Of a DNA stretch of 64,000 nucleotides, positions 31,395 through 49,068 are shown piece after piece; position 1 is the stretch's first letter, and each line of letters opens with the position of its first letter. Under the pieces are notes generated by a model, which was not told the DNA's origin, did no database searches, and worked only from the letters and a program-made list of their open reading frames with translations. The stretch is taken from contig JAVHQC010000010.1 in NCBI GenBank assembly GCA_036170915.1, positions 160,001 through 224,000 of the forward strand, in the 5' to 3' direction. Source of the DNA: Cyanobacteria bacterium auto_48_18 (GTDB lineage: Bacteria; Cyanobacteriota; Vampirovibrionia; Obscuribacterales; Obscuribacteraceae). Position numbers and translations under genes: made by a program.

Positions 31395-31832
31395 TTATTT
31401 CATGTTCGACATCTTTTCACAACTTTCGACGCACTTGCGACACTCAGCGGCGCAGTCTTTCATTTGTTTGTCATCGCCAAAAGATTCACAGCTTTCGGCG
31501 CAGAGCTTGCATATGTCAGCGCAAAAACCGCACGATTTTGCATGGTTTGCTGAATTGCGAGAAAGAAATTCGGCGCTCATTTTACATGCAGCAATGCAGT
31601 CTCTAAGCGTATCTAGATGCTTATTTTCTGCATGTTTGCCGCCTTTCTTTCGACAATATGCCAAGGTTTTCTCGCACACTTTTTGGCACTTGCGGCACAC
31701 AGCCTCACAGGATTCCATACTGGGCATTGTTGCATTTTGAGTGTTTGTGCCTGTTTGAGCACTTATGCTGGTATTGCTCGAAAATGCAAAACATCCCAAA
31801 ATCAACATGAATAGAACAACGATTTTTTTCAC
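31395..31832 (-). CDS. Cys-rich four-helix-bundle copper-binding protein (Csp/DUF326-like), exported
   Basis: Repeated CxxxCxxC; AAGGA RBS before GTG 31832; signal peptide. Confidence 0.85.
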   Translation of the reverse strand: MKKIVVLFMLILGCFAFSSNTSISAQTGTNTQNATMPSMESCEAVCRKCQKVCEKTLAYCRKKGGKHAENKHLDTLRDCIAACKMSAEFLSRNSANHAKSCGFCADICKLCAESCESFGDDKQMKDCAAECRKCVESCEKMSNMK

Positions 31833-32004
31833 AACTATTTCCTTGATGAAGTAGGCCATAAAGAGAACTTATGCTGCCAAAAGTTCCCTTGAATTTAAAA
31901 ATAAAGATGCCTAGGTGGCGCTCGACGCGACTAGTATTGATAAGTTCCCGATTACAAAGTCTTCAGAACATGGTAAAGAAGCCAGGTGGCTCAAGCACAG
32001 TAAC

Positions 32005-32445
32005 TCACGCTTTCCTTTTTTGATTGCGAACATGCTTGGTCAAAATCTGACGCAGATAAGGTTGATAATCAAGACCCTCACCAGCAGCAAGCTCTTTCAA
32101 ATCTCTAATCAGCGTTTTTTGCAAACGCACAGAGATTACATCGCCGTCGGTCATATCAATCGACAGCTCTCTGTTCAAAGCTTGTGCAATCTTGTTCAAC
32201 ATGGTGAGCGAATGCCCCTCATAATCGGCATCCTCAAGTCGGCTTATTACTGACTGGGTAGTGCCGATCAATCCAGCAAGCTGCTTCTGAGTTAGGCCTG
32301 CATCTTCACGGTAATCAAAAATGAGACGCGCGATTTTAGCATTGACACGCTCTTTATCAAACGTATCCTCACGCTCGGACGAGCCCGCAATGAACTTTTT
32401 GTGCAGGATCTTCACGGCATTTGATTGCTTACTGATATTTCTCAT
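32005..32445 (-). CDS. Xre-HTH antitoxin fused to a CopG/RHH-type antitoxin tail
   Basis: GLTQKQLAGLIGTTQSVISRLEDADYEGHSL, then ISVRLQKTLIRDLKELAAGEGLDYQPYLRQIL. Confidence 0.75.
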   Translation of the reverse strand: MRNISKQSNAVKILHKKFIAGSSEREDTFDKERVNAKIARLIFDYREDAGLTQKQLAGLIGTTQSVISRLEDADYEGHSLTMLNKIAQALNRELSIDMTDGDVISVRLQKTLIRDLKELAAGEGLDYQPYLRQILTKHVRNQKRKA

Positions 32446-32520
32446 TTTGCATCCACTGAAGAATTGGGCGTCATTGCTGACAGACAAAACTTTCTCTGCT
32501 CTTGGTACAAAACCATCATT

Positions 32521-32553
32521 TCAGCATATCGCAAAATTGCTATCTTTACAACC
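32521..32553. promoter_or_regulatory. Duplicated TA promoter/operator block
   Basis: TCAGCATATCGCAAAATTGCTATCTT(T/C)ACAACC, also at 34911; contains a GCAA-AA-TTGC dyad. Confidence 0.65.
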
Positions 32554-32685
32554 GTTGTTGCCCAGCGCACCAGGAGTCTGCGCTATGACCAAAATTGCAT
32601 CCTCAGTACAGACAAGAACGCATTGCGAAAAGGCTATTACGATAGCTGCGAAAAGGCTATTGGGATTTCAGCAGGGCGACCAGCC

Positions 32686-32779
32686 TTATTAAAGCTACCT
32701 TTAATAACGAAACCTGTTATTAAAGCGAAACCGGTTATCCTTTAATAAGGGTTAGCTCTATTAAAGGAACCTTTAATAG
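32686..32779. repeat. Symmetric element with six TATTAAAG half-sites
   Basis: TATTAAAG at 32687, 32718, 32759; CTTTAATA at 32699, 32740, 32771; centred on ACCGGT 32730-32735. Confidence 0.9.
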
Positions 32780-32785
32780 CCGTGG

Positions 32786-33430
32786 GTGACAACAAATATC
32801 AAAATGAATAGGACTTTAGCGATTGTTGCCTTTGCAGTGATAGGACTGACAAGCTGCTCTGGTATCCGGCTATTTCGCGCAGAACCACCCAAGGTAGTGC
32901 GAGAAGGTAAGACACCAGTGCAGTACTATCAAATGGGCGTGCACTATAAATCTGTGGGCTGGCCTGAGCAAGCGCGCGAGTGTATGGAACGCACAATCAA
33001 AGGTGACGAACACGGGGAGGTAGGTAAGAGAGCAAAAGTCTATCTTGCAGCCTATCTACCGCGTGACCATGTTTCGCCAGAAGCTGTTCATCGAAATATT
33101 ATCGCTTTCAATTTGAGGTCGCGAGGTAAAGACGAAGAAGCGATTGCAGCATTTCAGGCGTGCACCATCGACTACCCTGCATTCGAATGGCCTTATGGAA
33201 ATTTAGCCGGGATCTACACTAAAGCAGGCCGCTACAAAGAAGCCCAAGCAACCCTAAATCAGATACTAAATCTAAACCCAAATTATCTAAACGGCTGGGT
33301 TCAACTCTCGAGAGTTCTAGCAGCTGCCGGAGATAAAACCGGTGCAATGCGCTGTGCAAAACGTGCACTGCAAATTGATCAATACTCTAGCGAGGCGAAA
33401 GAACAGTTGAACTCGCTAGAGCAGGAATAG
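32786..33430 (+). CDS. TPR lipoprotein, paralog 2
   Basis: Lipobox LTSC (likely start ATG 32804); GWPEQAREC and FEWPYGNLA shared with paralog 1. Confidence 0.8.
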   Translation: MTTNIKMNRTLAIVAFAVIGLTSCSGIRLFRAEPPKVVREGKTPVQYYQMGVHYKSVGWPEQARECMERTIKGDEHGEVGKRAKVYLAAYLPRDHVSPEAVHRNIIAFNLRSRGKDEEAIAAFQACTIDYPAFEWPYGNLAGIYTKAGRYKEAQATLNQILNLNPNYLNGWVQLSRVLAAAGDKTGAMRCAKRALQIDQYSSEAKEQLNSLEQE

Positions 33431-33484
33431 GGTGCGTTTGCGAACATACTCGCACCGTCCTTGATACCAGCAAAAAACGCCCGA

Positions 33485-33988
33485 TTATTTTAGCGCAGCG
33501 TTCTTCAATGCCTCGCGAACCTTTGCAGTCCAAACTTCCATAGAAGATTTCACTTCTGGATCTGATTGTAAGAGGTAAAGAATGAACTGAGCCTGAATGG
33601 CTTGATCCCGACTTTCATCACTAAGAGACTGTTCTTGAACGAGCATGCGTTTCACCGGGTCTACATGATCGTATCTAGCATATTTCGTCCCAAGATCCTT
33701 ACAATCAGACCAGGCCAATTGGGAGTTATTAAGATGACTGTTGTTTTTTTGCGCACGAACAAATTCTGCAAGAACCTCATTGATCTTTGTTTGATAGCCA
33801 GGTCCCATAGACTTAAAGAAACGTACAACCTCAGGATCAAGTCTTATCGAAACAGTTTGCTTCCCAGTCCTAGAAGAACCTACAGACACATTTTCAATCG
33901 TGCCAGCATCAAAGCCAATGTCGTCATCATCTGAAATCTCAGCACCGCTGTCCTGTTGCAATTTTAGTTTCTTCCAATTTGTAGCCAT
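33485..33988 (-). CDS. BrnA-family antitoxin with C-terminal extension
   Basis: KQTVSIRLDPEVVRFFKSMGPGYQTKINEVL. Confidence 0.85.
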   Translation of the reverse strand: MATNWKKLKLQQDSGAEISDDDDIGFDAGTIENVSVGSSRTGKQTVSIRLDPEVVRFFKSMGPGYQTKINEVLAEFVRAQKNNSHLNNSQLAWSDCKDLGTKYARYDHVDPVKRMLVQEQSLSDESRDQAIQAQFILYLLQSDPEVKSSMEVWTAKVREALKNAALK

Positions 33989-34001
33989 ATCACTCGAGTC
34001 C

Positions 34002-34229
34002 TTAACTATTCTTTTTTGCGTGCCACAGTTTACGATCTGCCAGACTTGAAACGAAGGCCGAGATTATTCTTGTAACATCACCGCCGCGTCTTACCGTAAA
34101 AATGACTGAGACATTGACACCCTCAATGCAAACAAGACGCTTTGTACGAATCTCATCGTCCACGACTTGATCAATATCTATGAAATCAAACTCGTCAAAC
34201 CAATCTATAACATCGTTAAAATCGATGTC
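34002..34229 (-). pseudogene. 5'-truncated BrnT toxin
   Basis: Manual translation DIDFNDVIDWFD...DEIRTKRLV...VSVIFTVRRGGDVTRIISAF...DRKLWHAKKNS*; no start codon, in-frame stop upstream; directly before brnA. Confidence 0.75.
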
Positions 34230-34902
34230 GGAAATGAACGGTTATCTCTAATGAACCACCTAACTTCTCGATGTAATCTCTCAAAGTGCTGATGTACATA
34301 TCAGTACGCTGCTCTATTTTTGAAATTTCGCGCTGCTGAACCTGCAACTTCTCCGCTAAAGCTCGTTGTGAACATTTCAAAGCTTTGCGCAATTCTTGCA
34401 AACCCATTTCTTCGGCCAGCATTTCAGCTGCGCGAGCATCAATCTTGCTACGCCTTTCGGGAGACAACTTTTGAAGATAATCATTGAGATTCTTTTTCAT
34501 GCAGAGCATATCAATCGATAGCTTTCTATTTAAAGCTTGTGCGATTTTGTTCAACATGGTGAGTGAATGCCCTTCGTAGTCGGCGTCTTCAAGGCGGCTT
34601 ATCACTGACTGGGTAGTGCCAATCATTTCGGCAAGCTGCTTCTGAGTTAGGCCCGCATCTTCACGGTAATCAAAAATGAGACGCGCAATTTTGACGTTAA
34701 CACGCTCTTTATCAAGCGCAGCCTCACGTTCAGACGAGCCCGCAATGAACTTTTTATGCAGGACCTTCACGGCATTTGATTGTTTGTTGTTATTACTCAT
34801 TTTGCTCAATATATGTATGCTTGGTTGGAGATTTTTCAAATAGAGGAACGGGCTCGATCCATCGCTATTAGCAAATAAGACGACCTCCGTTCTGGGCATC
34901 AT
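34216..34902 (-). CDS. Chimeric ORF: toxin N-terminal relic + Xre-HTH antitoxin + second Xre-HTH antitoxin
   Basis: AAGGAGG RBS; MPRTEVVLFANSDGSSPF; HTH1 from ATG 34800; HTH2 from ATG 34500 (CSQRALAEKLQVQQREISKIEQRTDMYISTLRDYIEKLGGSLEI). Confidence 0.75.
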   Translation of the reverse strand: MMPRTEVVLFANSDGSSPFLYLKNLQPSIHILSKMSNNNKQSNAVKVLHKKFIAGSSEREAALDKERVNVKIARLIFDYREDAGLTQKQLAEMIGTTQSVISRLEDADYEGHSLTMLNKIAQALNRKLSIDMLCMKKNLNDYLQKLSPERRSKIDARAAEMLAEEMGLQELRKALKCSQRALAEKLQVQQREISKIEQRTDMYISTLRDYIEKLGGSLEITVHFRHRF

Positions 34903-35009
34903 CCCTCCTTTCAGCATATCGCAAAATTGCTATCTTCACAACCACCGAAGGCCACTCAATTAGAAACACCCACAGGCCACAGTAACACCACCATGCATTG
35001 CTTTCTTAT

Positions 35010-35038
35010 AGACGTCGAAATATCGATTAAAGTTCAAA
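35010..35038 (-). promoter_or_regulatory. ECF-sigma-like promoter motif, copy B
   Basis: AGACG-N11-ATTAAAGTTCAAA on the + strand. Confidence 0.6.
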
Positions 35039-35147
35039 GCGACAGTTTAAACGGGCAACTTTTGCACAAAATTTGGGCTCGACCGCAAATATGGTTGATG
35101 CTGTCATACTTAACATGATTTCAATACCGGACGCTTAAACATCACTT

Positions 35148-35489
35148 ATGCCAACCAATAACAAACAAGCCCCACAACCATGGCTCAAGAAGGCGACAGA
35201 CCAACTGAAAAAACTCTGCAGAGATGCTGCTGCGGTGGTCGACGAAGGCGATGTACTCCCCAGCAAACAGGCCGTAAACACTGCGATCGAAATTTTGCAG
35301 ACATTCCAAAGGGTCAGCAGGCCGAAAATAAGATTGACTGTGGACGGCGAAATCGCATTATCGTGGAATCACACTCGCGATGAATTTCAAGCGTTCATTC
35401 AACCAAACGGGTCCGTCCATTTTTTTCATAACCGAAAGCACATCGACAAAGCTGACTTTAGCAAACTACTGATGGGGCATTCAGCTTAG
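35148..35489 (+). CDS. Hypothetical protein
   Basis: 113-aa ATG ORF; PKIRLTVDGEIALSW segment. Confidence 0.55.
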   Translation: MPTNNKQAPQPWLKKATDQLKKLCRDAAAVVDEGDVLPSKQAVNTAIEILQTFQRVSRPKIRLTVDGEIALSWNHTRDEFQAFIQPNGSVHFFHNRKHIDKADFSKLLMGHSA

Positions 35490-35534
35490 CAATTTCTTTG
35501 AACGCAAGTCGTGCCGCTCTTCGCCATCTAGGTG

Positions 35535-35879
35535 CTAGCTTTTTGTTGCCTTAGGTACAGACGAAACTTTCTTCTGTACTAAAATCTTTTCCAAGCGATC
35601 GAATCGCGAATTAATTACTGCCACTATATCTTCACCTAATTTTGTCATTTCATTACCGGAATGACTATCCTCTTCGGCGAGGCGCTCCAGCACCCACTCC
35701 CGTGCCATGGTACCGACCGGTTTCTTCACGAGACTGGCACGATCATAAAGCTTTTGAACGCTCTCTTCGTCAATTCGAAATTGCACAATTCCCGTCTTCG
35801 CAACTTCTGCTCGCGCCTGTAAAAGTGTTTGTCGCTTTCGCTTTGAAAGTTCCCCTGGTGTCATTTTCGACATCGTCAT
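35535..35879 (-). CDS. Orphan ribbon-helix-helix (CopG-like) protein, probable antitoxin
   Basis: IVQFRIDEESVQKLYDRASLVKKPVGTMAREWVLERL. Confidence 0.6.
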   Translation of the reverse strand: MTMSKMTPGELSKRKRQTLLQARAEVAKTGIVQFRIDEESVQKLYDRASLVKKPVGTMAREWVLERLAEEDSHSGNEMTKLGEDIVAVINSRFDRLEKILVQKKVSSVPKATKS

Positions 35880-35913
35880 CAACTTATCCAATCCATCTCT
35901 TCTAGGAACCCCT

Positions 35914-35944
35914 ACAATGTATTACAAATGTCACACATTGTCAA
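35914..35944 (-). promoter_or_regulatory. Sigma70 promoter with overlapping inverted repeat
   Basis: TTGACA-N17-TACATT on the minus strand; ACAATGT...ACATTGT dyad. Confidence 0.65.
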
Positions 35945-36011
35945 GATCGGCTACCGACCGCGTTCGGAGAATGCAAGTCAGCTTTGCCGCCAGATGACAG
36001 TCACTTCTCTT

Positions 36012-36040
36012 AGACGGCAAATCCACAATTAAAGTTCAAA
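36012..36040 (-). promoter_or_regulatory. ECF-sigma-like promoter motif, copy C
   Basis: AGACG-N11-ATTAAAGTTCAAA on the + strand. Confidence 0.6.
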
Positions 36041-36166
36041 AACAACTCGGCAATGCTCGTCTTACCGACGCCAAACACCGAGCAAATAAGCTTGAATATT
36101 TGATCATGGCGCTGTACTGGCCGCCCCAGTACCGCCACTGCCCATTCGCTTGTTAGTCACATCCTC

Positions 36167-36204
36167 GCCACAATTGAGAAACACAATACTTGAACAAGTC
36201 GATA
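36167..36204 (+). repeat. Conserved leader element, copy 1 of 3
   Basis: GCCACAAT(T/C)GAGAAACA..(A/G)TACTTGA(A/G)CAAGTCGATA; other copies at about 39143 and 45880. Confidence 0.8.
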
Positions 36205-36221
36205 AGTGAGGGCTGCACTAA

Positions 36222-37064
36222 ATGCCGATATCCAGAGGCGAAAAATCAATTGATGTAGATTATGCAGAATCAGATTCGAAGGAGCAACTCTCCAATAAAT
36301 TTGCGGGCCTTGATTTTGCTCAGGTTCCATTGAGTAACTCGAGCAGAGAATCTCAAGATAAGGCCTTACAAGAGAAGCAGATCTTGCCCAATGTCAACAT
36401 TGCCCAGTCTGGCAATTGGTTTATAAAAAATGTTGATAAATTTGACGACAAATTCGAAACAGGAGATTTATATCTTGAAGATATCCGGCTTGCATTAGAG
36501 TCGAAAACCAAAGCCTTGACCCTCGACGAGCGCGCACATTTAGAATTTTACAAAAAACACTTCGAATACTTTACGAGCTTGAATGCAGAATATGTTCCGG
36601 CAATAGTTCAGTCGATAACTAAAGGCGACATGCGCGCGTTCAACAAGCAGTTAACTGAATATGGGGATGAATTGTCTACGTTGAAACAGTACGAGCCCGG
36701 AAGATATGAAGCGGTTTCATCTTTAAGACAGAACTTCAAATGGCTTGACCAAAACAAAGATGGCAGTGTCTCTTACGAAGAGGTAAATGCCGGCATAAAT
36801 TTACCGAATTTGCCCGAGGTTTACAAACGCGGGTTAAAAACAGTTGCTAGCTATTATCCAATTATTACAGAGACGCCATCGAGTGTGGGCTACGATCGAC
36901 CAATTGGTCCCGAGACAATTACCAGCTTTATTCTCAAATCAAACCTCCCATACCAGAAAGTTCACTCCAGTAGGTATGGCTATAGACAGCCGGAGCTAGA
37001 CCCATATAAACGCGAAAGATTAACTAAACTAGAGACGTTATTTCAAGCACCTAATTCGCCTTAA
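36222..37064 (+). CDS. EF-hand-containing hypothetical protein, paralog 1
   Basis: DQNKDGSVSYEE loop; near-identical to 39198..40040. Confidence 0.75.
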   Translation: MPISRGEKSIDVDYAESDSKEQLSNKFAGLDFAQVPLSNSSRESQDKALQEKQILPNVNIAQSGNWFIKNVDKFDDKFETGDLYLEDIRLALESKTKALTLDERAHLEFYKKHFEYFTSLNAEYVPAIVQSITKGDMRAFNKQLTEYGDELSTLKQYEPGRYEAVSSLRQNFKWLDQNKDGSVSYEEVNAGINLPNLPEVYKRGLKTVASYYPIITETPSSVGYDRPIGPETITSFILKSNLPYQKVHSSRYGYRQPELDPYKRERLTKLETLFQAPNSP

Positions 37065-37121
37065 TTGGTTCTTCTGTTTTTGTCTTCAACTCTAGCTTCT
37101 GCCCAGCCTGTATCTTCTCTT

Positions 37122-37931
37122 TTACGCACCACCATCTAAATGATATTTGAGTACGTTGCCGGCAAAAACTTTTGTTTTAAAGTCGGGGTCGTTATCTTTC
37201 ATATTCGTCAGCGCATCGACCAATTGTTTATCCAGTCCCACTAAGCCCAATCTAGGCCGTTCACGAAGCGTTGTTAGTGCCAGGTATCTCACTTCTGACC
37301 TGGAGTCGACAAAGCAAAGTTTAACTAATCGCAGCCGCAGATCAGTAAAGTTTTCCAAACAGCGAAAGATCAAACCTAAGTCAAGCAACGGAGACTTGGA
37401 CAATAGCATTTCTTCAGCGTATTGAAATAATTTTTCCGCCTGCTGCAGATCGTTAATAGTTCTCTCGAATAACCAACCGCCGTTACGCCCTTTCTCAATC
37501 ATCCTGAAAGTTTGCTCCCATGTATCGATATCTAAATACACGGCAGCATCGCGGGCCCTCCAGAAGGTTGAATCATCTTCCTCTTTCAACACCGCTTTTA
37601 TGCGACTTGGCCAGTCTGGACGCGCTAAAATACCATCACACAATTCCGTTAGATTACTTGCCAGCTGCAACAACCGATCATCTTTTGACGTAGGTTGGCC
37701 AAGCTTAAAACTGGCAACATAATCTCTGATAGATTTGACCATCAGAAATTGTTCAATACTTATCTGCTTCGAATGAAAATGTGTCAGCAAAGTTGAAAGT
37801 GCTTCACATACTTCACTGTCCAGAGGAAAGTTGAGGTAAGCCGGAGGATCATCTGTAGGGGGCCATTTCATAAGACTGAAACGTTCAATCAGTCTTTCAA
37901 TTTCTCTGTCATCCTTTTCCACAATTAACAC
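37122..37931 (-). CDS. Hypothetical helical (HEAT-like) protein
   Basis: Leu-rich helical C-terminus; follows the kinase gene. Confidence 0.5.
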   Translation of the reverse strand: MLIVEKDDREIERLIERFSLMKWPPTDDPPAYLNFPLDSEVCEALSTLLTHFHSKQISIEQFLMVKSIRDYVASFKLGQPTSKDDRLLQLASNLTELCDGILARPDWPSRIKAVLKEEDDSTFWRARDAAVYLDIDTWEQTFRMIEKGRNGGWLFERTINDLQQAEKLFQYAEEMLLSKSPLLDLGLIFRCLENFTDLRLRLVKLCFVDSRSEVRYLALTTLRERPRLGLVGLDKQLVDALTNMKDNDPDFKTKVFAGNVLKYHLDGGA

Positions 37932-37942
37932 TCCGCGCGGTA

Positions 37943-38944
37943 CTATTCAAACTGCTTCCAAGCCTGGCCCAACTCGGCAACACTTTGGTAGCGCTTGTCT
38001 GGATCCCGCTCTAAGCAACGTTGAACCACCGCCTCCAGTTCATCAGAGAACTTAAGATCTTGAGCAACAGAACCCATTAATGGCGGCTTGTCGCGCACCT
38101 TTTTCAGCATGGTCTCCATGGCGTCTCTGCCTCTTAGTGGAGCGGCGCCCGTGAGAATTTCAAACACCATGCAGCCAAGGGAATAGACTTCGGAGCGGCA
38201 ATCGGCTTCTTGCCCATTGCACTGTTCAGGGCTCAAATAAAGAGGGCTGCCGAAAATTTCACCAGGCTGGGTCAAGGTCTGTAGCAATGCTGCTACTTCT
38301 TCGGTGGGCCTATCAGCAGCCCAGTCCATCGACTGCAATACGGCCACACTGGTTGGACAGATTTCACCGGTCGACGCACAGGCTTTGGCTATGCCGAAGT
38401 CGACAATCTTAACTTGTGGTGGGGTGGTGCCGGCAATCAACATGATATTGCTTGGCTTGATATCGCGGTGCACGACATTTGACTCGTGGGCGTAACTAAG
38501 CCCGGCGCATACCTGAGAAAATATCGGAGCGAATATTTCGATAGGCAGCCGTCCACTGGCTTCTATCATGTCGTCTAGGTTTTCGCCTTGGAGATATTCC
38601 ATAACCATGTATGGCTCAGACGCTTCGGTCAATCCAAAATCAAAGACTTTAACGATGTTAGGATGTTGTAGACTGCTGGCCAATTGGGCCTCGCGTTCAA
38701 AGCGCAGCACATTAGCAGCATCGGCTTTGAGGTGCCGGTGCATAACCTTAACTGCATAGGTTGCCTTAGTCTCGCGCTCAATCGCTCGAAATACTGTTCC
38801 CATACCGCCAACACCAAGCTCATTGAGCAGTTTGTATCGCTCAGAAACATTCTTCAGATTAGCTCCATTAGAACTGTCTACCGTGAGCTCAGAGCTCACT
38901 GCTGGACTGAGAAGTTTCTTGGTTCTCTCTGTGTTTTCAATCAT
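37943..38944 (-). CDS. Hanks-type Ser/Thr protein kinase
   Basis: LGVGGMGTV, AVK, HRDIKPSN, DFG, GSPLYLSPE. Confidence 0.95.
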   Translation of the reverse strand: MIENTERTKKLLSPAVSSELTVDSSNGANLKNVSERYKLLNELGVGGMGTVFRAIERETKATYAVKVMHRHLKADAANVLRFEREAQLASSLQHPNIVKVFDFGLTEASEPYMVMEYLQGENLDDMIEASGRLPIEIFAPIFSQVCAGLSYAHESNVVHRDIKPSNIMLIAGTTPPQVKIVDFGIAKACASTGEICPTSVAVLQSMDWAADRPTEEVAALLQTLTQPGEIFGSPLYLSPEQCNGQEADCRSEVYSLGCMVFEILTGAAPLRGRDAMETMLKKVRDKPPLMGSVAQDLKFSDELEAVVQRCLERDPDKRYQSVAELGQAWKQFE

Positions 38945-39197
38945 GGTTTATTGGCTCTTTTGAGAACTAGTTAGACAGTTCATTATTCCCGGGAATCAAT
39001 GATCTGACAAATTGAAATTACTTGGTGGCGCGCCTAGTTTGTTCATCTGCCAGATCTAGCATCGAAGCGATCGATCATAGAGTTTCGGCCTGCAATTTAA
39101 CTTGACGTTGATCAACGGTTCGCTTTCAATGGACACACCCCTGCCACAATCGAGAAACAGAGTACTTGAGCAAGTCGATAAGTGAGGGATGAACTAA

Positions 39198-40040
39198 ATG
39201 CCGATATCCAGAGGCGGAAGCTCAATTGATTTAGATTATGCAGAGTCAGATTCGGCGGAGCAACTCTACAACGAATTTGCGGGCCCTGATTTTGCTCAGG
39301 TTCCATTGAGTAGCTCGAGCAGAGAATCTGAAGATAAGGCCTTACAGCAGAAGCACATCTTGCCCAATGTTGACATTGCCCAGTCTGGCAATTGGTTTAT
39401 AAAAAATGTAGATAAATTTGACATCGCCGAAGGCGCATTCAAAACAGGAGATTTATCTCTTAAAGAAATCGAGCTTGCATTAGGATCGAAAACCGAAGCA
39501 GTGACCCTCGACGAGCGCGCACATTTGAGATTTTACAAAAAAAACTTCGAATACTTTACGAGCTTGAATGCAGAATATGTTCCGGCAAGTGTTCAGTCGA
39601 TAACTAAAGGCGACATGCACGCGTTCAACAAGCAGTTAACTGAATATGCGGATGAATTGTCTACGTTGAAACGGTACGAGCCCGGAAGGTATGAGGCGGT
39701 TTCATCTTTAAGAAAGAACTTCAGATGGCTTGACCACAACAAGGATGGCAGTGTCTCTTACGAAGAGGTAAATGCCGGCATAAATTTACCTAATTTGCCC
39801 GAGGTTGACAAACGCGGGTTGAAAGCAGTTGCTAGCTATTTTCCAATTATTACAGAGTCGCCATCTGGTGCGGGCTACGATCGACCAATTGGTGCCGAAA
39901 CAATTACCAGTTTTATTTTCAAATCAAACCTCCCATACCAGGAAGTTTACTCCGGTCGGTATAGCCCTCGTCAGCCGAAAATAGACACATATAAACGCGA
40001 AAGATTAACTAAACTAGAGGCGCTTTTGCAAGCACCTTAA
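39198..40040 (+). CDS. EF-hand-containing hypothetical protein, paralog 2
   Basis: DHNKDGSVSYEE; duplicate of 36222..37064 including the leader. Confidence 0.75.
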   Translation: MPISRGGSSIDLDYAESDSAEQLYNEFAGPDFAQVPLSSSSRESEDKALQQKHILPNVDIAQSGNWFIKNVDKFDIAEGAFKTGDLSLKEIELALGSKTEAVTLDERAHLRFYKKNFEYFTSLNAEYVPASVQSITKGDMHAFNKQLTEYADELSTLKRYEPGRYEAVSSLRKNFRWLDHNKDGSVSYEEVNAGINLPNLPEVDKRGLKAVASYFPIITESPSGAGYDRPIGAETITSFIFKSNLPYQEVYSGRYSPRQPKIDTYKRERLTKLEALLQAP

Positions 40041-40058
40041 TTCGCCTGAGAGGTGGCG

Positions 40059-43000
40059 TTATAGGTTATCCGGCCTGCCAAGGCTTGGCGGCTTAGTTAA
40101 TGGCATGATTTGATCCTCAGCACCAGCCCGCCGCATGAACTCGCGATACTGTTCTTGCATTGTGGTGGAACTATATCCGAAAGCTCCAGGGTAGTCGTGC
40201 AGGGGTTTTGCAACCTGCTTCGCCCACTCAAGAGCCTCTTCTCTTTTGCCCATTGAAAGTAAAACGTTTGCCAGGCGCAGCTTATCTTTCGTCTCCGAGA
40301 TGACTTCACCAGTGGGAGCCTTCGTAATTTGATCAGTACAAAGAGCGGCCTTCGCCAGTTTATTTTGCAATAAATATATCTCGGCAAAATTGATCATGCA
40401 CGTGAACTTTGGTACAGAGCACTTACCGTACTGTTCATTCAAAATTTCGAGTTCACGCAATTGAATTTGCTCAGCTTCGTCATAACGCCTCTGCTGCACA
40501 TAAAATTTGGTCAGCGCATCATACGCTTTAAGAGCGTCAACGCTGCCAGCGCCATGGGTTTCAATGGTTTCTGAAAGAATCTGCTTCAACGGTTCTTCAG
40601 CAGTAATTGCATAGAGTTCAGGGGAAGCCGAATGAGAAGTATAAAATCTGATGTTATAAAGTTTTTGAAGATCTGGAGGTCGCCTTGTGCCTTCAGCAGG
40701 TTTTACAGACACTCTATCTGCCTCAGCGCTCTTTCCTTCTTTTCTTAAAATTGAAGCAAGCAAAACCGAACTAATCCTTCCACTGTTTCGGGAACCGCCT
40801 ATCCAATTTTCCAAATCCAGGGCTTTTCTAGCAAAGCCTTCAGCTAAAATCAACTTGCTCTGAGCCTCTCGCAACTTTGCATAAGACTGAAAATTTTCAA
40901 TAAACAAGGCGTTGCGTGGTCCTACTTCGGTCAATTGAATTTTAGTTGCCTGCTCCAGAAGATTTTCAGCAATATCAAATTGTTTTTGCTCAGTAAATTT
41001 ATCAACAACTGAATAAAACAAAAAAGCAGACATGCTATTGCCACGAGAAAGACAGATTGACGGATATTGACTAAAGGTTGCTAATAGTGCCTCAGCCCAC
41101 TTCTTAGCCTCACTGTAATTATCCTCGTCAATAAATAACTCAGCTAGAAAAGCTTTCTCGATAAATGCGCTGGCATAAGTACCGGAAGCCCTATGCGTAA
41201 GAATACTCTGTTTAAGTATCGCTTCAGCTTCACGGTATTTCTTTGCTTTAACTAGAAGTGTAAATCCAAGGTCAGCTCTCATATTTCCAGGGTGATACAT
41301 AGAGTGGTTGAAGCTTTCGCCCGACTCCATTGAAAGAGCGCGAAGCATTGCTGCCACACCATCTGCATACTGCTGTTTTCCCAGATGAATACGCGCAACA
41401 TTAGCCCATTCAGAACTTGCGGCAGGGTTGAGTGCATTCTCTGAATTTTGAGCATGTTGCTTTGCTCCTAGCAGCGCTTGATCAACGTTGCCCGTGGCCA
41501 ACTCAACAGACTGCAACCAATTTTTTAGAGTGTCTAGGCCAGCTGAACGAAAGTCGTTCTTCTCGGCCAGATTGATTATAGTTTGAACACTTACGGCACC
41601 ATATCGAGTGGCAACAGATGTATGTTGTCTTTGAGCGGCCTCGACAAGCGCTCTTATGGTGTCGGGAGAAATCGTAGGCAAAGTGTTCGCTAGCTCTACT
41701 GCTCTTGCGAAAGCCAATGCTTGAGCAGCACTACCTCCGCTGACTCGAAGAAAGGCCAATATCGCTTTATAAGTATTTCCGGTTTTAGCCAGCACTTCTG
41801 CTCTGAGAAATCTCACATTTAGAACTTCATGACCAGGAAGGCTGACGCTATCGTCGCCATCACTGAACTGGGACAGCGACTCTTTAAATCGGCCGAGCCT
41901 ATACAAGATAAGTGCACGTCGATAGGCCAATATCTTATCAACATTCGAACTTTCCGCACTTTCGGTTCTCAGTACGCTCAGACTCAAGTCGATATGACTG
42001 GTCCGAAAAAGCGCAACGCTTAAAGCACCTAACATTCTAGAGTAGTCATTACGTGATCTGTCGGGAACCATCAAAATATCAATTTTCTTTTGCGCTTCGG
42101 TTATGTTGTTCTGCAATAGATATAAAATTGCTTCGTAGGCAATTGGTGAAACGTCTCGTTTTGTAGCTGCAGGGTATGACCGCGTGGCGTAGTTAAACAG
42201 ACGATGTGCCTTCACAGGCTCTCCCAGAAAAGCATAGATATAGGACACAGTGATCATTTGCTGAAATCGCTTTTGTTGGTCTTCGTTAGAATCTCTTTCA
42301 CGTGAGTTAAATTGGGCAACCTCAAGGTCATTGAGAAGAGTGGTTAAATTTGACCAGGCGGGCGAAGCGTCGCTATCATCTTTACCCATCAGAGCAATTT
42401 CGGCCGTCTGATACAATCGATTAGCACTAAAAGTGGTGCCCGGAGATGCCAAATAGCTATCCATGCGTCTTAGCATAGCTAAGGCTCTAGTGGTGGTTAA
42501 CTGGGTTTTCAGTAATTTGACCAGGTTTATCAATCGCGTAATATCATCTGCACTGTGTGTGCTCTTTGCGAGCTCCTGCTCAAATAGTGCATCCAATGAT
42601 GTAATAGCTTTACCTTGATTGGTGACAGCCGAGTCATAGACTAACCTCGCCAAGCGAGCATCTGCACTGCCCTCTACGACTTCAGTCTTAGGCCGATTCA
42701 TTTCAGCAATTGCAAGCAGATTGTCAAATTCCTTAAACAACTGCTCTTGATTTGAAGCATCATTTCTTACAAGTAGAGCACTTAATTTTTCTAACTGCAA
42801 AACCGCTCGGCAGTCCTTGCCTAAGGCCTCGGATATTAAATTCTTGGCGAGGTCAACCTGCATCAGTGCTTGTGGCAATTGCTTAGCCCTGGCATATGAA
42901 TTGGCCAAACGAATCTCGACATCACTTAAGCAAGGTGATCCCCAACGTTCTAACTGCATCCTCTCTTGAGCATTCAACTTATCGGTGTAAATGGATGCAG

Positions 43001-44183
43001 CCTGAAGCAGAGCAGATTGCGACTTTGTTGAGTCATCAAATTGTTCATAAATATCCGACAGTTTCAAAAGTGCCGATATTAGTTTCTGGTATTGAAAGAT
43101 TCTTACGCTGCCCTGGGCATCGAGTTGCAAGTCCACAATGTGCCTTTGCGCAGCCTCGGCAATTTCCCGATGTTTACTGTCAACGGCGTAATCAACCAAA
43201 CTTTTCAATGAAGCTAGCAAGAACTCTCGCTGCAAATTTCCAGGCTGAGCACAATAATCGGCTACTTGCTTGTAGTCTCTCTGAGCAGCATCCTCATTTG
43301 GCCCAGCCAAACTTGCTCGACCCAGCAGCACTGTTATCCTATTTTGAATCGACAAAGTCGGCAGCAATTTATATAGAGTGTTATAGATTTTTTGTGCGCT
43401 TTCGGAGCAGCCATGTTGAGCAAGCATTGCGGCACATTGAGTAAGCGCCTTAGTGCCAGCATCAGAACATTTTGCAGAATGAGCCTCAGAAAATTCCAAG
43501 GCTTGTTTGGCGGCTGCATCGAATTGCTCGAACATGCCAGTGAGTGCGTAAAAATCTAATGCCTTCGGCAACGCTTTAATTGGGTCCGAGAATAAAGCTG
43601 GAAACATAAAGTTTGGACAATTTGTAGCGGCAATAAAATATGGTACAGCCGCAAGGTTGTTGCCAGAGGCGTGGTGCCTTTCACCTAGAGCAGCGAGATC
43701 GTCTGCTGCATAGCCACTATTGGTAAAAAGGTCAGTGACATTAAGTAATGGCCCGTAGATCGACGCTGTTTTGTACATCGTTGCAGGCGAGTATCGAGTT
43801 AGAGTTTTCGTTAGGTATTGATCACCTTGAATTAGTGTCACTTCTAATTTCGAATCAATTGGTCCGAAAAGCATAGCCGATAATTCTTCTATGCTTTTGT
43901 CTTTGGCATAGACAGGTCCGAGCTTTATGACTCTGCTATCTGATGGGAAATACAAATCGTTGCTGCGTAAAGGCGAAGGGGTGCCGGAGCCAGACTCAAT
44001 GACGGTTGAACCGTCGGCCAATCTGCGCAAGACGACGCCGGGATCGCCTAATTTGTCTGATGCACTATTGCCTGACACATGTTCACTGGAAACAGAATCT
44101 GCTACTGAATCAGCCCCACGGCAGGGTGATACCAGAGTTAGACACACGGCAAGCGTTGCTGATAGAAATTTGTACAAACGCAC
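40059..44183 (-). CDS. Very large TPR-like protein with degenerate PDZ-like N-terminal domain
   Basis: Signal peptide; GVVLRR...GTPS...LFGPIDSKLEVTL; helical repeats. Confidence 0.65.
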   Translation of the reverse strand: MRLYKFLSATLAVCLTLVSPCRGADSVADSVSSEHVSGNSASDKLGDPGVVLRRLADGSTVIESGSGTPSPLRSNDLYFPSDSRVIKLGPVYAKDKSIEELSAMLFGPIDSKLEVTLIQGDQYLTKTLTRYSPATMYKTASIYGPLLNVTDLFTNSGYAADDLAALGERHHASGNNLAAVPYFIAATNCPNFMFPALFSDPIKALPKALDFYALTGMFEQFDAAAKQALEFSEAHSAKCSDAGTKALTQCAAMLAQHGCSESAQKIYNTLYKLLPTLSIQNRITVLLGRASLAGPNEDAAQRDYKQVADYCAQPGNLQREFLLASLKSLVDYAVDSKHREIAEAAQRHIVDLQLDAQGSVRIFQYQKLISALLKLSDIYEQFDDSTKSQSALLQAASIYTDKLNAQERMQLERWGSPCLSDVEIRLANSYARAKQLPQALMQVDLAKNLISEALGKDCRAVLQLEKLSALLVRNDASNQEQLFKEFDNLLAIAEMNRPKTEVVEGSADARLARLVYDSAVTNQGKAITSLDALFEQELAKSTHSADDITRLINLVKLLKTQLTTTRALAMLRRMDSYLASPGTTFSANRLYQTAEIALMGKDDSDASPAWSNLTTLLNDLEVAQFNSRERDSNEDQQKRFQQMITVSYIYAFLGEPVKAHRLFNYATRSYPAATKRDVSPIAYEAILYLLQNNITEAQKKIDILMVPDRSRNDYSRMLGALSVALFRTSHIDLSLSVLRTESAESSNVDKILAYRRALILYRLGRFKESLSQFSDGDDSVSLPGHEVLNVRFLRAEVLAKTGNTYKAILAFLRVSGGSAAQALAFARAVELANTLPTISPDTIRALVEAAQRQHTSVATRYGAVSVQTIINLAEKNDFRSAGLDTLKNWLQSVELATGNVDQALLGAKQHAQNSENALNPAASSEWANVARIHLGKQQYADGVAAMLRALSMESGESFNHSMYHPGNMRADLGFTLLVKAKKYREAEAILKQSILTHRASGTYASAFIEKAFLAELFIDEDNYSEAKKWAEALLATFSQYPSICLSRGNSMSAFLFYSVVDKFTEQKQFDIAENLLEQATKIQLTEVGPRNALFIENFQSYAKLREAQSKLILAEGFARKALDLENWIGGSRNSGRISSVLLASILRKEGKSAEADRVSVKPAEGTRRPPDLQKLYNIRFYTSHSASPELYAITAEEPLKQILSETIETHGAGSVDALKAYDALTKFYVQQRRYDEAEQIQLRELEILNEQYGKCSVPKFTCMINFAEIYLLQNKLAKAALCTDQITKAPTGEVISETKDKLRLANVLLSMGKREEALEWAKQVAKPLHDYPGAFGYSSTTMQEQYREFMRRAGAEDQIMPLTKPPSLGRPDNL

Positions 44184-44245
44184 GCTGGATGCCTCAGGTT
44201 GTCTAATTCAAAGTATTCTGGCTGCTAAGAACATCAAGCAGACCA

Positions 44246-45628
44246 CTAGTGCCGCTCGGCGACCTCGAGCAACTCCCGACTGAACCGATCGGCCGCAGCG
44301 ACATCGAAAGTTACAAGTGCAATTGTAATCAGATTGTTGAGAAGATCGATTTGCATTGCAAAATCATGAGTGCTCACTAGCTCAGTTTCCCAACGGCGAC
44401 GGAAATAAAGGGCCTCAATGGGTAGAAAAACAATCGCAAAAACAAGCGCCGGAACAACGGCAAGAGCTGGATCAACTTCACGCGCGGCGGTTTTAAGCCT
44501 TTCCTGGTGGCATCTCATTCGGTCACGAACCATCGCTTCAGAGCGTTCAGTCACCGCTTTTTCTGTCTCATACTCGCCCAATGTACCAGCCTTTCGTTCC
44601 AATGTAAAAGCTATACACCGGTCATCTGTTGAATAATTCTCAACGCTGTAGGCATCAAATGGAGCACAAAGCGATGACAAAAAAATATTTTCATTTCTCG
44701 CTACAGGTTTTACATTCATCAGATATTGAAGGCCAGCTGTCAGCCAGCGCACGGCTTCGGCCTTCACCTCAGCTGACAATATACGTCGATTAACTCTAAT
44801 GATTTTAGATTTTTCAGGATGATCAGGCCCAAATTGACATACATCCATCGTTAAACATTCAACCAGTTCGGCTGCTATTCGAGCGCATGATTGATCATCA
44901 TGCTGTTGACCATAAAATGGCAACGCCTTTTTATAATTTCCTACAGCATGGTGAGTAGCTTGCCTTGCGCCATTCAAATCATCCCTGAAATACTTCCCCA
45001 TTGCCAGTAAACGGTTTGCGTCGCCTAGCTCGACTTGTCTATAAGCCACATGAGCGCTACCTTCACCATACACCAGCCGTACTATCTTATCGTTTTCATC
45101 AAATTGTTTTCCCCAGTAGCGATCGCATGACCAAGACCACTGAGTACATAAAGCTGTTCTGCCTTTGATCCGAGACGGGTCGGGAATTGCCTTGTAAATA
45201 TACTCAGCTGCGAGCATTTGGCCAGATTCAGCGCAGCCTTTGGCTAAAGCTAATCCGCTATACCAGGGAATAGAAAAACAACATTTCAGAATCAAAACAA
45301 GTAGGGCTACCGAGGTCAAGGTTTCGTGAGTTCCGCTCAGTAAACGAACGACTTTACTGGTTCTATTCATCTTTGCTTGTAAGTCTTGCCAGTGACAGGC
45401 CAACACCCCGAATTTAGTGAGCCTGCTCACAACGAAGTAGATCGCGCCTGCGAGAAGAAATATAACTGGCTGAAGAGTGTCACCGACAGATGGACCTAAA
45501 TGCTCGTGCAATCGACATGGAAGTTGCTGTGCATGAAACTCTACGATTAGGTTATGTACAATCATCGACATGCTGGTAAGCATGCACAAAGCAACAGCTA
45601 AATTGAGAAGTGAAAAATTTCGGCGCAC
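44246..45628 (-). CDS. Membrane-anchored hypothetical protein with TPR-like region
   Basis: N- and C-terminal hydrophobic segments around a helical domain. Confidence 0.6.
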   Translation of the reverse strand: MRRNFSLLNLAVALCMLTSMSMIVHNLIVEFHAQQLPCRLHEHLGPSVGDTLQPVIFLLAGAIYFVVSRLTKFGVLACHWQDLQAKMNRTSKVVRLLSGTHETLTSVALLVLILKCCFSIPWYSGLALAKGCAESGQMLAAEYIYKAIPDPSRIKGRTALCTQWSWSCDRYWGKQFDENDKIVRLVYGEGSAHVAYRQVELGDANRLLAMGKYFRDDLNGARQATHHAVGNYKKALPFYGQQHDDQSCARIAAELVECLTMDVCQFGPDHPEKSKIIRVNRRILSAEVKAEAVRWLTAGLQYLMNVKPVARNENIFLSSLCAPFDAYSVENYSTDDRCIAFTLERKAGTLGEYETEKAVTERSEAMVRDRMRCHQERLKTAAREVDPALAVVPALVFAIVFLPIEALYFRRRWETELVSTHDFAMQIDLLNNLITIALVTFDVAAADRFSRELLEVAERH

Positions 45629-45981
45629 AACTCGTACCCGTGAAACTTACTCCACTATGACACCGCAGCGGTGGTCTGTCACTCGTGGAAACATCATCCT
45701 TGCGGGGCGACTGCCCTTAACACAGGCTCAACTCTGCGTCGTCTTACGCGTTTACGAATTCAAAGCTGATTAAAAACCCTATTCACCTTCGCTACGCAAT
45801 CAACAGCTTACGCAATGCAGGATCACGCATTTTCCAAAGCATGCTGAGTGTGCTGTTCGTTTTCAGTGGCCACATTCCCGCCACAATCGAGAAACATAAT
45901 ACTTGAACAAGTCGATACTTGATGTTTCGCCCCGCAAAATTGCAGGAACAAGAAAATGATTAATCTCAGAGAGGTGTTCGC

Positions 45982-46242
45982 TTGATATTAATTTGGAAGG
46001 GTGCAGGCCTCCTGGTTTTATTTATTGGCCTTGGAACACTCGTTGTAACTCAGTGGATTCTTGGCCCCCTATATCAAGAGGGGTGGGCAAAAATATTAGG
46101 CTTGAGCATTGCTGGTGTTATCTGCTGGTTTCTAGGCAAGCATCTAAATAGGCACGCCAGCAACCACGACCTTTTCTTCATCCCGATGGAATATTGGGGC
46201 ATTGTACTTCCTATCCTCGGAGTGTCGCTATCTTTTGTCTGA
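45982..46242 (+). CDS. Small membrane protein
   Basis: GAGG RBS; LIWKGAG...HDLFFIPMEYWG. Confidence 0.7.
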   Translation: MILIWKGAGLLVLFIGLGTLVVTQWILGPLYQEGWAKILGLSIAGVICWFLGKHLNRHASNHDLFFIPMEYWGIVLPILGVSLSFV

Positions 46243-46331
46243 CGCCGATCCCTCGACCTGCGCAAGTAATAGAAGGCATCACTGATAGTGTCATCAAAAT
46301 GAGAAAGGTAAATGCGTAATTTGCGCCGGAA

Positions 46332-46691
46332 TTATAAGTGACAGCCAAGGCTGCCCAAACCAAGAGAATACATTCCGAAAAAGTACACACACAAAGGGAC
46401 GAGGGCAAGCGCACAAATTTCGCCAACAAGTTGATTGCCTCTTACTTTCTGGCCTCTAAACCCGGCCAAAACACAAGCAAGCAGCGCTGCGTACCATGTG
46501 CTTAGTTGCACATGGTTTGTAAGCATCTCGTATCCAGCATCGGTAAACTTAATGACCTGAAGCACGTGAGGATCGCGTGGATCTAAGGGCGCTCCTACAA
46601 GACCCTGCGCATTTGCATGAGCAACGCACAAACAGCTAAGCAAAACAAAAACCAGGCAGGCGCCAAAGCGTAAGTTGATGATTGAAAACAT
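46332..46691 (-). CDS. Hypothetical membrane protein (possibly frameshifted at the 3' end)
   Basis: GAGG RBS, hydrophobic segments; further hydrophobic sequence continues in another frame. Confidence 0.45.
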   Translation of the reverse strand: MFSIINLRFGACLVFVLLSCLCVAHANAQGLVGAPLDPRDPHVLQVIKFTDAGYEMLTNHVQLSTWYAALLACVLAGFRGQKVRGNQLVGEICALALVPLCVYFFGMYSLGLGSLGCHL

Positions 46692-46921
46692 GAGTGCCTC
46701 ACTCGAAAAAGAAAGCCAGCAGCCAAGCCGGGCTGCGTTGGATTGACAACTTTAAGCGCAGTTAACATGTGCGTAAAGAGGAAAAGCACCACTGAGACCG
46801 GCGAACGAAGGAGAAGCGCCGAACTGGCTTCCGCATAAGCCCAGGCTATCCAATGCACTAATGGCTCAAGCGGCACGCGCTGTTTTTCGCTAAACTTTGA
46901 TCGCACAAAGAGGATGACAAC

Positions 46922-47167
46922 TTGCAAGAACTGAAACCAGTTTCTATCGTGGCAGAGGGCCAGACCGGGCCGAAGTCATTTTCCTATCGGGTATTCTTCG
47001 AAAGTGACGGCGCTAAATCCGATTTCACCTTCACCGTTAGCGACGACGAAATCACATCGGTCTCTTGGGATAGCGACAAATTTTGGGACATCACCCGTGA
47101 AGATCCGCGGATGCCGGCGCTCATGCAAGCTATTCTTCGTTTGCACGATGCACGTCGAAGTCTGTAA
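46922..47167 (+). CDS. Hypothetical protein
   Basis: GAGGA RBS before TTG; 81 aa. Confidence 0.55.
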   Translation: MQELKPVSIVAEGQTGPKSFSYRVFFESDGAKSDFTFTVSDDEITSVSWDSDKFWDITREDPRMPALMQAILRLHDARRSL

Positions 47168-47208
47168 ATTGCTTTCAACAACTAAGCGAAGAGTGCTATA
47201 GTCAGTTT

Positions 47209-47263
47209 TAATAAGAGCTCCCACGCTTCCCGTTTACGTAGCGCACCAGGGAGCTCATTATTA
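47209..47263. ncRNA. Candidate abiF-type structured RNA
   Basis: Stem TAATAAGAGCTCCC / GGGAGCTCATTATTA enclosing ACGCT...AGCGCACCA; extended -10 TGCTATAGT just upstream on the + strand. Confidence 0.45.
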
Positions 47264-47271
47264 ACTTGCAT

Positions 47272-47355
47272 GGCGATGTCTGCCTTATGGCGCATGATGC
47301 CCATGTATTTCTGATAGGTCGCTTTGACGAGCAGCGCCGGCGGATTAGGCACCAC
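47272..47355 (-). pseudogene. Possible internal fragment of a PIN toxin
   Basis: VVPNPPALLVKATYQKYMGIMRHKADIA directly after the AbrB gene. Confidence 0.4.
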
Positions 47356-47357
47356 CT

Positions 47358-47654
47358 TTACGCTCCAGGGTAACGTTTAGACACTTTGCCCGCGGCTCTT
47401 TTAGCAACTCGCGTCTTCAGCTCATCTGGGCTCAAACCTAATTTTTGCAAACCCTTCTGAGCCCTGAGCATCAAATCGGCCATGACTTCACTCTGCGGCA
47501 GCAAGATGATGCAGCCTGGTAGCGAAATTTCTACGACAGTTTCACCAGCATGCAACCCATGTTGCTTACGCGCCTCTTTCGATAGCGTCACTTGCCCCTG
47601 TGTACTTACTTTTAGAGTGCTTATTTGCGGTTCGTCGTGCGCTAAATGGCTCAT
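47358..47654 (-). CDS. AbrB/MazE/SpoVT-family antitoxin
   Basis: KVSTQGQVTLSKEARKQHGLHAGE...IILLP. Confidence 0.8.
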   Translation of the reverse strand: MSHLAHDEPQISTLKVSTQGQVTLSKEARKQHGLHAGETVVEISLPGCIILLPQSEVMADLMLRAQKGLQKLGLSPDELKTRVAKRAAGKVSKRYPGA

Positions 47655-47742
47655 AGTGCTTCCAAGCAGATGGGTAATCATTAGACTTTAGAACTTCAGT
47701 TAAATTTAGATTCTTTAGAAACTATAGTCGAAAAAGCTGCAA

Positions 47743-49068
47743 TTGACAAGCTCTGTATACACTAGTGTGGTCAATTGCAAGCCAGAGAGAGCTCCGACAA
47801 GATCGCCCATTAAAAACCGCACAGTAGCTCGCTACACCATGCCATATAATTATCTAAATACACTAATTGAGATAGCCGAATTGCCCATCAAAAAGAAAAA
47901 ACTTTCTTCAAAACGTAATGACAAAATTTATATAGAAGATGTGGTCGAACCGGCACGAATTCGCACACAATCATTTGCCTCGGCCTTTCCAGCATTAGCA
48001 CAATGGTGGCATTATAAAAAGAATTGTGGTTTCGGACCAGAAGATTTTTCATTCCGCTCCCATGTGCGCGCCTGGTTTAAATGTCCAAAGGGAAAAGATC
48101 ATCTATTTCAAGTACAGATTGCTGCCATGGCCAATGCTGCGCTTTCGCAATCGAAAATAAAAGGTTGCGGCTTTTGTAATGCGAAAAGAGTGTCTGTGAC
48201 GAATAATCTGGCCGACCATTATCCAGACATAGCAGCAGAACTTGTAACCAAAAAAAACAATTTTGATCCCTCTAAAATCGCAAGCGGCTCAGGCAAGAAA
48301 GCCTGGTGGAAATGCAAGAAAGGTCACCAGTGGCAGGCAGCAATCAATAACCGCACCGCAGATGGTACCGGCTGCCCGCGCTGCAATGTTGGCGAGCCAC
48401 TTGATTTGCGTAACTATCCGCGAGCGATGAAAGAGTTTGATAAAAAAAATAATCCGGGAGTAAACCCTCATGCCTTGCCTTTCACAGGCAAATTTGCCTG
48501 GATTTGCAGTAATGATGCGCGCCATAAATGGACCGCCGGCTTTTATCGCTCCAGCGAAAACCGAGTGCGATGTCCGCTTTGTCGAAGCCAAAAAGGTTCT
48601 ACTGGAAATAACCTTAAACGCTCTTACCCGGCCATAGCCAAGCAGTGGCATCCGACGAAAAATAAATCAGTCGGCCCAGCCGATGTCACGTTCGGCAGTG
48701 GCTATAAAGCCTGGTGGAAATGTTCTGCCGGACCCGATCACGAATGGCAAACTGCGGTAGCAAATAGAACTTCTAATCAGACGGGTTGCCCTTTTTGCCT
48801 ATTTAAAAAAGACTCAGTTACTAACTTAATCTCAACCGCCGCGCCCAAATTAGCCAGAGAGTGGCACCCGAGCAAAAACAAAAAATTGACTCCCGAAAAA
48901 ACTAGAATTCACTCAATGCAACCAGTATGGTGGCTCTGTAGGAAATGTTCATGTGAATGGCAAGCAGCACCAATTTATAGAGTGACACGGGGCAACGGCT
49001 GCCCCGCCTGTGCTCGCAAAAATCATAGTAAAATCATGAAAGCGATCAGGGGCAAGCAGCGACTGTAA
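47743..49068 (+). CDS. Zinc-ribbon (DUF4379/treble-clef-like) repeat protein 1
   Basis: Five units of WH..KN...WW.C...H/C.W...R...GCP.C; true start probably further downstream. Confidence 0.85.
   Translation: MTSSVYTSVVNCKPERAPTRSPIKNRTVARYTMPYNYLNTLIEIAELPIKKKKLSSKRNDKIYIEDVVEPARIRTQSFASAFPALAQWWHYKKNCGFGPEDFSFRSHVRAWFKCPKGKDHLFQVQIAAMANAALSQSKIKGCGFCNAKRVSVTNNLADHYPDIAAELVTKKNNFDPSKIASGSGKKAWWKCKKGHQWQAAINNRTADGTGCPRCNVGEPLDLRNYPRAMKEFDKKNNPGVNPHALPFTGKFAWICSNDARHKWTAGFYRSSENRVRCPLCRSQKGSTGNNLKRSYPAIAKQWHPTKNKSVGPADVTFGSGYKAWWKCSAGPDHEWQTAVANRTSNQTGCPFCLFKKDSVTNLISTAAPKLAREWHPSKNKKLTPEKTRIHSMQPVWWLCRKCSCEWQAAPIYRVTRGNGCPACARKNHSKIMKAIRGKQRL

Follow-up and report, generated by a model that had tools for sequence, protein, structure and literature searches.

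Orphan antitoxins, left behind when type II toxin-antitoxin (TA) modules decay, have been recorded in Klebsiella, whose strains carry a median of nine (PMC7192599), likewise in large numbers in E. coli (PMC10790755), and in Pseudomonas, where toxin loss in the worst-affected families reaches 52% (xre-res), 27% (higBA) and 23% (brnTA) (PMC7280312). Whether such antitoxins are debris or purposeful is an open question (PMC7354431, PMC7192599). We analyzed a window of 64,000 nucleotides from Cyanobacteria bacterium auto_48_18 of the Obscuribacteraceae (contig JAVHQC010000010.1, positions 160,001 to 224,000; G000:C10:160001-224000 in our numbering), a groundwater metagenome assembly of 4.94 Mb that is 86% complete. 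Seven former type II TA modules lie there at four loci, on the same island as a complete Wadjet system. Their orphan antitoxins are a known phenomenon, here in an unusual fused form. As in Klebsiella, E. coli and Pseudomonas, the antitoxin is kept, the toxin is truncated or absent and the context is that of a former pair, and the same three roles (remnant, regulator, anti-addiction) can be proposed for them. Unlike the orphans described there, deletion has here joined several of the leftovers into in-frame fusions and, apparently, one operon, and one of the fusions shows selection that can be dated to after the loss of its toxin.

Two further precedents concern activity against foreign or hostile toxins. 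The chromosomal CcdA of Erwinia chrysanthemi, which acts against CcdB of the F plasmid (PMC7354431), offers a parallel in that a chromosomal antitoxin could neutralize a related foreign toxin; unlike that case, no close mobile toxin was found here. Counter-defence by a phage orphan antitoxin (PMC11825919) is similar in that an orphan may be kept to block a toxin in trans, although that system is a phage enzyme directed against DarTG1, while the present one is chromosomal. In the literature searched (subscription journals not covered; supplementary orphan tables could hold cases) there was no report of deletion-built, duplicated or fused antitoxins arising from decay, and none of Wadjet-antitoxin coupling or of TA systems in this lineage.

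All seven toxins (7/7) are broken by deletion, and an intact toxin-antitoxin parent was found in relatives for every module. The modules descend from HigBA-type (Gp49/RelE toxin first, XRE helix-turn-helix (HTH) antitoxin), BrnTA and VapBC (AbrB plus PIN) systems, and none is now a complete pair. Their features, by window position, are as follows.

32005-32445, minus strand: copy A, a 146-aa in-frame fusion of HTH1 and the C-terminal ribbon-helix-helix (RHH) half of a CopG-type antitoxin, under purifying selection
32452-32508, minus strand: long-dead Gp49/RelE toxin stub of copy A, with a changed start codon, a 7-nt gap and 18/39 nt differing from the parent
32516-32553, minus strand: promoter/operator of copy A, 36/38 nt the same as the copy B promoter
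33485-33988, minus strand: BrnA antitoxin, full length (Pfam 5e-15)
34002-34229, minus strand: headless BrnT relic, parent residues 19-91 of 99 (Pfam 7e-4)
34216-34899, minus strand: copy B, 227 aa, in which 19 toxin codons are fused to HTH1 (34507-34800) and HTH2 (34230-34500)
34793-34843, minus strand: toxin tail of copy B, the terminal 16 codons of its Gp49/RelE toxin, in a different frame
34906-34943, minus strand: promoter/operator of copy B, its sequence shared with copy A
35535-35873, minus strand: orphan RHH antitoxin, full length (ESM Atlas RHH_1 0.93)
35886-35904, minus strand: BrnT-like toxin scrap of the RHH module, 19 nt, 16/19 as in G010
35916-35951, minus strand: promoter of the RHH module, retained and sigma-70-like (10/12), with 31/31 nt as in G010
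47275-47361, minus strand: PIN toxin relic, residues 77-105 of 162, 21/29 identical to G061
47358-47654, minus strand: AbrB/MazE-type antitoxin, 98 of 101 aa with three codons gone (TIGR01439 4e-5, below cut-off)

A preliminary description had reported antitoxins with mere toxin relics at these four loci, and the open reading frames (ORFs) of the window bear it out: an in-frame HTH-CopG fusion behind a degenerate toxin start, now identified as Gp49/RelE, at 32005; a toxin stub, two HTHs that share a frame, a relic of BrnT and a full BrnA at 33485-34943; an orphan RHH protein at 35535; and an AbrB-like protein followed by a scrap of PIN at 47358. The search for intact parent pairs in related genomes that it proposed succeeded throughout. 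Its claim that the antitoxins are intact holds for BrnA and the RHH protein and nearly so for AbrB, and fails for the four that are truncated yet open (HTH1 twice, HTH2 and CopG). The count of seven antitoxin domains from four folds stands as seven pieces; these represent three folds if BrnA is taken, as we presume, to be of RHH type, and at most six specificities, because the two HTH1 copies are duplicates with 88% DNA identity. No complete toxin is present inside 32005-47654, as stated, while the contig carries an intact ParD/ParE pair some 12 kb past jetA. Junction overlaps are merely 1-3 nt, as judged against diverged parents, and promoters and antitoxin starts are retained by sequence at all loci. 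Wadjet lies 15-19 kb from loci 1-3, which 11.5 kb separate from locus 4.

Copy A retains the first 98 of the 221 aa of a double-HTH antitoxin (32152-32445; HTH_3, 1e-8) and 43 C-terminal residues (32005-32136; CopG_antitoxin, 8e-4, below cut-off) of a CopG-type antitoxin that has lost the first 42 of its 85; the missing N-terminal half is, by analogy, presumably the toxin-binding part. The CopG-type parent, found in G005, in G020 and on C33 of this genome, sits behind a BrnT-like toxin. About 22 degenerate codons remain of copy A's own toxin, and the deletion that removed the rest is distinct from that in copy B. The same HTH-CopG order occurs in G006, where it is dead through two further deletions, and the G006 junction would most simply derive from an already fused allele. 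A search of metagenome contigs for the copy A fusion returned five loci, the best of which, L145, is an intact pair of toxin and double-HTH protein, the other four matching the HTH in part.

Copy B, 2.4 kb away, keeps the same 98 residues of HTH1. Some 265 nt of its toxin were deleted between the 19-codon stub and the 16-codon tail, so that the stub is in frame with the antitoxin. HTH2 derives from a HigA2-like antitoxin with a parent in G007; 90 of its 114 aa are left and its N-terminus is retained. Structure matches are to HigA for HTH1 (6af3, 5e-4) and to M. tuberculosis HigA2 for HTH2 (7ewc, 9e-6). The cut end of HTH2 is joined out of frame to the BrnT relic, with the whole BrnA next, and the copy B promoter probably drives copy B, the BrnT relic and BrnA as one operon. 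The C-terminal extension of BrnA is native (it is also found in G013 and G005), and its tail was thus discarded as a further fusion. In G013 the intact parent of module 1, which is present here twice as copies A and B, consists of a Gp49/RelE toxin of 123 aa, the 221-aa double-HTH antitoxin and a metallopeptidase that resembles CapP. This G013 module (L033:950-2918, G013:C134), whose metallopeptidase matches at PADLOC 1e-14 and whose double-HTH protein belongs to a large family, may be a TA system triggered by a protease. The RHH module still has its whole BrnT-like toxin in G010, G001 and G013.

Purifying selection has continued to act on copy A since the death of its own toxin. Between copies A and B, dS is 0.55 and dN 0.05, and on the copy A branch the toxin stub has accumulated changes at 8/26 first and second codon positions against 6/196 in the HTH (p=2e-5); the death of the copy A toxin is therefore old, and the antitoxin has been conserved through that time. 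The copy B stub has 0/26 such changes, so that the cut in its toxin is probably recent. After parting from G006, copy A has acquired 8 synonymous and 5 nonsynonymous changes (dN/dS, hereafter w, about 0.19; p=0.003), the G006 orthologue 6 and 9 (p=0.11), and the neighboring TPR gene has, for comparison, a w of 0.30. These counts are small and were assigned by parsimony with single outgroups. An orphan ParD duplicate just outside the window differs from the copy beside an intact ParE by 5 synonymous changes and 1 nonsynonymous change (p=0.004), with a toxin loss that is undatable. Selection on an orphan antitoxin, as the preliminary description proposed, is supported for copy A and, weakly, for this duplicate; the other orphans are recent, their selection undatable, and comparison with distant parents is of no help in dating it, dN/dS being saturated there.

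Toxin-first loss is the background in this lineage. Among 60 modules in relatives, 37 are intact, 19 have lost the toxin with the antitoxin frame open and 4 are broken in both genes, giving 23/60 without an intact toxin; within the genus the corresponding figures for 27 modules are 13, 11 and 3, or 14/27. Modules were located through their antitoxins, which renders lone toxins invisible, and toxin state was scored by eye; six loci were excluded (one at a contig edge, one of another family, two lacking a PIN partner and two with an unclear start), assembly errors possibly account for some of the frameshifts, and kin are not independent. Two proteins, P0017 and P0018, are independent fusions of a toxin stub to an antitoxin. 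In G015 a dense TA array (L132:5000-11400, G015:C4) contains RelE, Gp49, two BrnA, BrnT, ParE and HepT; it is mostly intact, with antitoxins directly behind other antitoxins (83/131 frames scanned), and seems to represent a less advanced stage of this decay. A search of this genome with eight Pfam families, which may miss further resident toxins given its 86% completeness, found intact Gp49, PIN_3, ParE, RelE, PemK, three PIN toxins and one BrnT-like toxin, and no match to the BrnT family proper.

Taken together, the locus reflects mostly ordinary toxin-first TA decay, with one fused orphan under demonstrable selection. The reading we favor, and consider moderately probable, is that a TA-rich island was worn by serial short toxin-first deletions, that copy A was retained to guard against the toxin of the resident copy B, and that Wadjet is a mere neighbor. 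In established TA biology, loss of the antitoxin first frees the toxin, so that as short successive deletions erode a TA-rich defence island, only those that remove the toxin first and keep the antitoxin expressed would survive. Later deletions would trim antitoxins and join neighbors, at times in frame, as in copies A and B. Copy A may have acted in trans on copy B, neutralizing its toxin, repressing the shared promoter, or both; guarding of a resident toxin would be the simplest cause of its retention, given the shared promoter, the 88% DNA identity of the two copies and the probably recent cutting of the copy B toxin. The other orphans would be recent and require no selection beyond the escape step. 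As the guard model predicts, G006 (77% complete) has no Gp49 match and its copy A orthologue is dead.

Several observations weigh against this reading. The support from G006 is that of one incomplete genome. The breakage of 7/7 modules is high (0.52^7 = 0.01 if modules are independent), a figure tempered by single deletions that hit two modules at once and by the choice of the stretch after the fact. Each of the seven antitoxin pieces has an open frame, and the reading frame runs on across both antitoxin-antitoxin joints, for which the chance is about 1 in 9. The RHH-module toxin carries the same deletion in G007 and G008; the antitoxins there still have a w of 0.14 (3 nonsynonymous, 6 synonymous), though that of the dead stub, 0.28, is low too. 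Finally, the copy B stub may owe its conservation to a role as leader of the fusion, not to a recent deletion.

Retention of the orphans and fusions against toxins of mobile elements, independently of Wadjet and with copy B plus BrnA as a polyvalent antidote operon, is an unlikely alternative that nonetheless accounts for the selection on copy A and for the retained promoters and starts, has a precedent in chromosomal CcdA (PMC7354431), and can point to toxins related to the lost ones on plasmids, for toxin 1 (12 records, the best at 46-49%, on cyanobacterial plasmids), toxin 2 (1980) and BrnT (3). These relatives are distant, with all but 3/1980 records for toxin 2, and every one for toxin 1 and BrnT, below 60% identity; PIN relatives were found on no plasmids, in a collection unlikely to hold plasmids of this lineage. 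The CopG piece has lost its presumed toxin-binding half, the same fusion is dead in the closest relative, and the copy B fusion was found on this contig only, among 949 matches of 1742 candidates. PMC7354431 leaves a common use of orphans in this role still to be shown. A bolder version, rather unlikely in our estimation, would see deletion as a means of shuffling domains by which dead TA arrays become polyvalent antidotes, copies A and B neutralizing several toxin families in trans and protecting from mobile-element addiction, with or without Wadjet. Activity of the copy B fusion as an antitoxin is in itself plausible, since HTH2 keeps its N-terminus, the region that neutralizes the toxin in V. 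cholerae HigA2 (PMC11006873). Purely neutral decay, in which nothing is selected after the toxin-first step and open frames reflect luck and recency, fits copy B, BrnA, RHH and AbrB, whose toxin relics are still near their parents, and antitoxins too are broken in the 4/60 modules noted above. We regard it as quite improbable, given that the copy A stub decayed when its HTH did not, and given the deficit of nonsynonymous changes since the G006 split; toxin-first decay, the null model of the preliminary description, explains the layout and fails only on the long retention of copy A. That the fusions are assembly chimeras is hardly credible, even in a metagenome assembly with 88% duplicates able to mislead assemblers. 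All junctions are spanned by Logan contigs (30000-32329, 32302-34684, 34657-36426 and 39990-48500) that differ at 0 letters and show an even depth of 10-13 and no alternative joints, and the HTH-CopG order is common to G006. These contigs were separately assembled from a single run holding this DNA, probably the source run, which excludes assembler error though the reads are not independent.

The preliminary description had further suggested an antitoxin library coupled to Wadjet, selected so that cells survive Wadjet-driven plasmid loss. The system in question is complete.

50821-57591, minus strand: type I Wadjet jetABCD, complete and in order (PADLOC JetA1-JetD1, near full profile cover)

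Such co-selection is very improbable, although a complete Wadjet does lie on the same island and G009 has related TA modules adjoining jetB and jetC pieces, which would suggest an ancestral island in common. JetD was found in 8/101 genomes, this one included, and in 0/14 congeners, where the same orphans and toxin-first losses nevertheless occur. In JetD-positive genomes, 2/6 tallied modules are broken, which is not above background. The expected enrichment of orphan antitoxins near jetABCD was not seen. No antitoxin chain was seen in the flanks of the seven other JetD loci, which span 7 to 49 kb each with three contigs short; 148/155 small ORFs were scanned, with the G009 and G000 regions included and 7 omitted that were taken as jet gene parts, and small genes may have escaped notice through the greedy ORF filter. 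What these flanks do hold is intact HipBA in G024, G078 and G020 and an AbiE-like pair in G048. The jet genes of G009 are themselves cut by deletions, and shared island history would explain the modules beside them. The copy A fusion is, besides, apparently older than the split from G006, which has no JetD match. In the reading favored here, Wadjet is an island neighbor, not a partner. The 3.7-kb contig of G009 (L034, G009:C165) carries intact Gp49/HTH and MazF pairs, a toxin-stub HTH2, an RHH stub and a HigB scrap beside a headless jetB and a truncated jetC.

The surrounding region is plastic, with two TPR paralogues, two EF-hand-like paralogues and duplicated fragments. The EF-hand-like paralogues (36222-37064 and 39198-40040) are 280 aa each and 89% identical, and a short element upstream of them is repeated at 45855-45917. 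Decay also extends beyond TA genes, to gene fragments at 58884-59005 and 49099-50833 and to a Fic operator that has lost its Fic gene.

32682-32779, no strand assigned: triple palindrome, preceding a Fic gene in several relatives; here Fic is gone and a TPR gene comes next

This palindrome occurs about once per genome across the family and is followed by a Fic gene in G010, G007, G004 and G023, by a TPR gene in G000 and G006, and by a gene for a ClpX zinc-finger protein in G014 and G005. It may represent operator capture or a recombination hot spot. An integron, dif or res-site reading was dropped because the element stands at the start of the Fic gene in relatives; a role in recombination is nonetheless conceivable, since genes other than Fic come next in G005 and G014. 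At 49099-50833, a DUF4379 gene (49293-50573) separates, apparently through insertion, parts of a WG-repeat gene that adjoin each other at C10:231342-231701, and DUF4379 genes are also found near jetA in G020 and G078. An Abi_2/AbiD-like HEPN gene (window 57933-58676) adjoins jetA. Just past the window lies a convergent parD/parE pair (G000:C10:225373-230003, L122:6374-11004), with a second parD copy that has a promoter and no parE 4 kb away; the layout is conserved in G005 and G014, on which ground an inversion was rejected as its origin, and parE is lost or broken in G010 and G006. The stretch L122:6929-9779 (G000:C10:225928-228778) holds an HTH-IrrE gene with a PIN-like partner, a gene that we take to be nucleotidyltransferase-like, with no Pfam match, and a small ORF, all of them open.

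In copy A a decayed toxin stub adjoins a conserved antitoxin and serves as a built-in clock, and the Obscuribacteraceae supply dozens of examples of these modules, some intact, some half-broken and some dead; together these make the question of debris or purpose a testable one. If it is true that the fusions neutralize two toxins, deletion-driven fusion of antitoxins would be a new way to broad antidotes.

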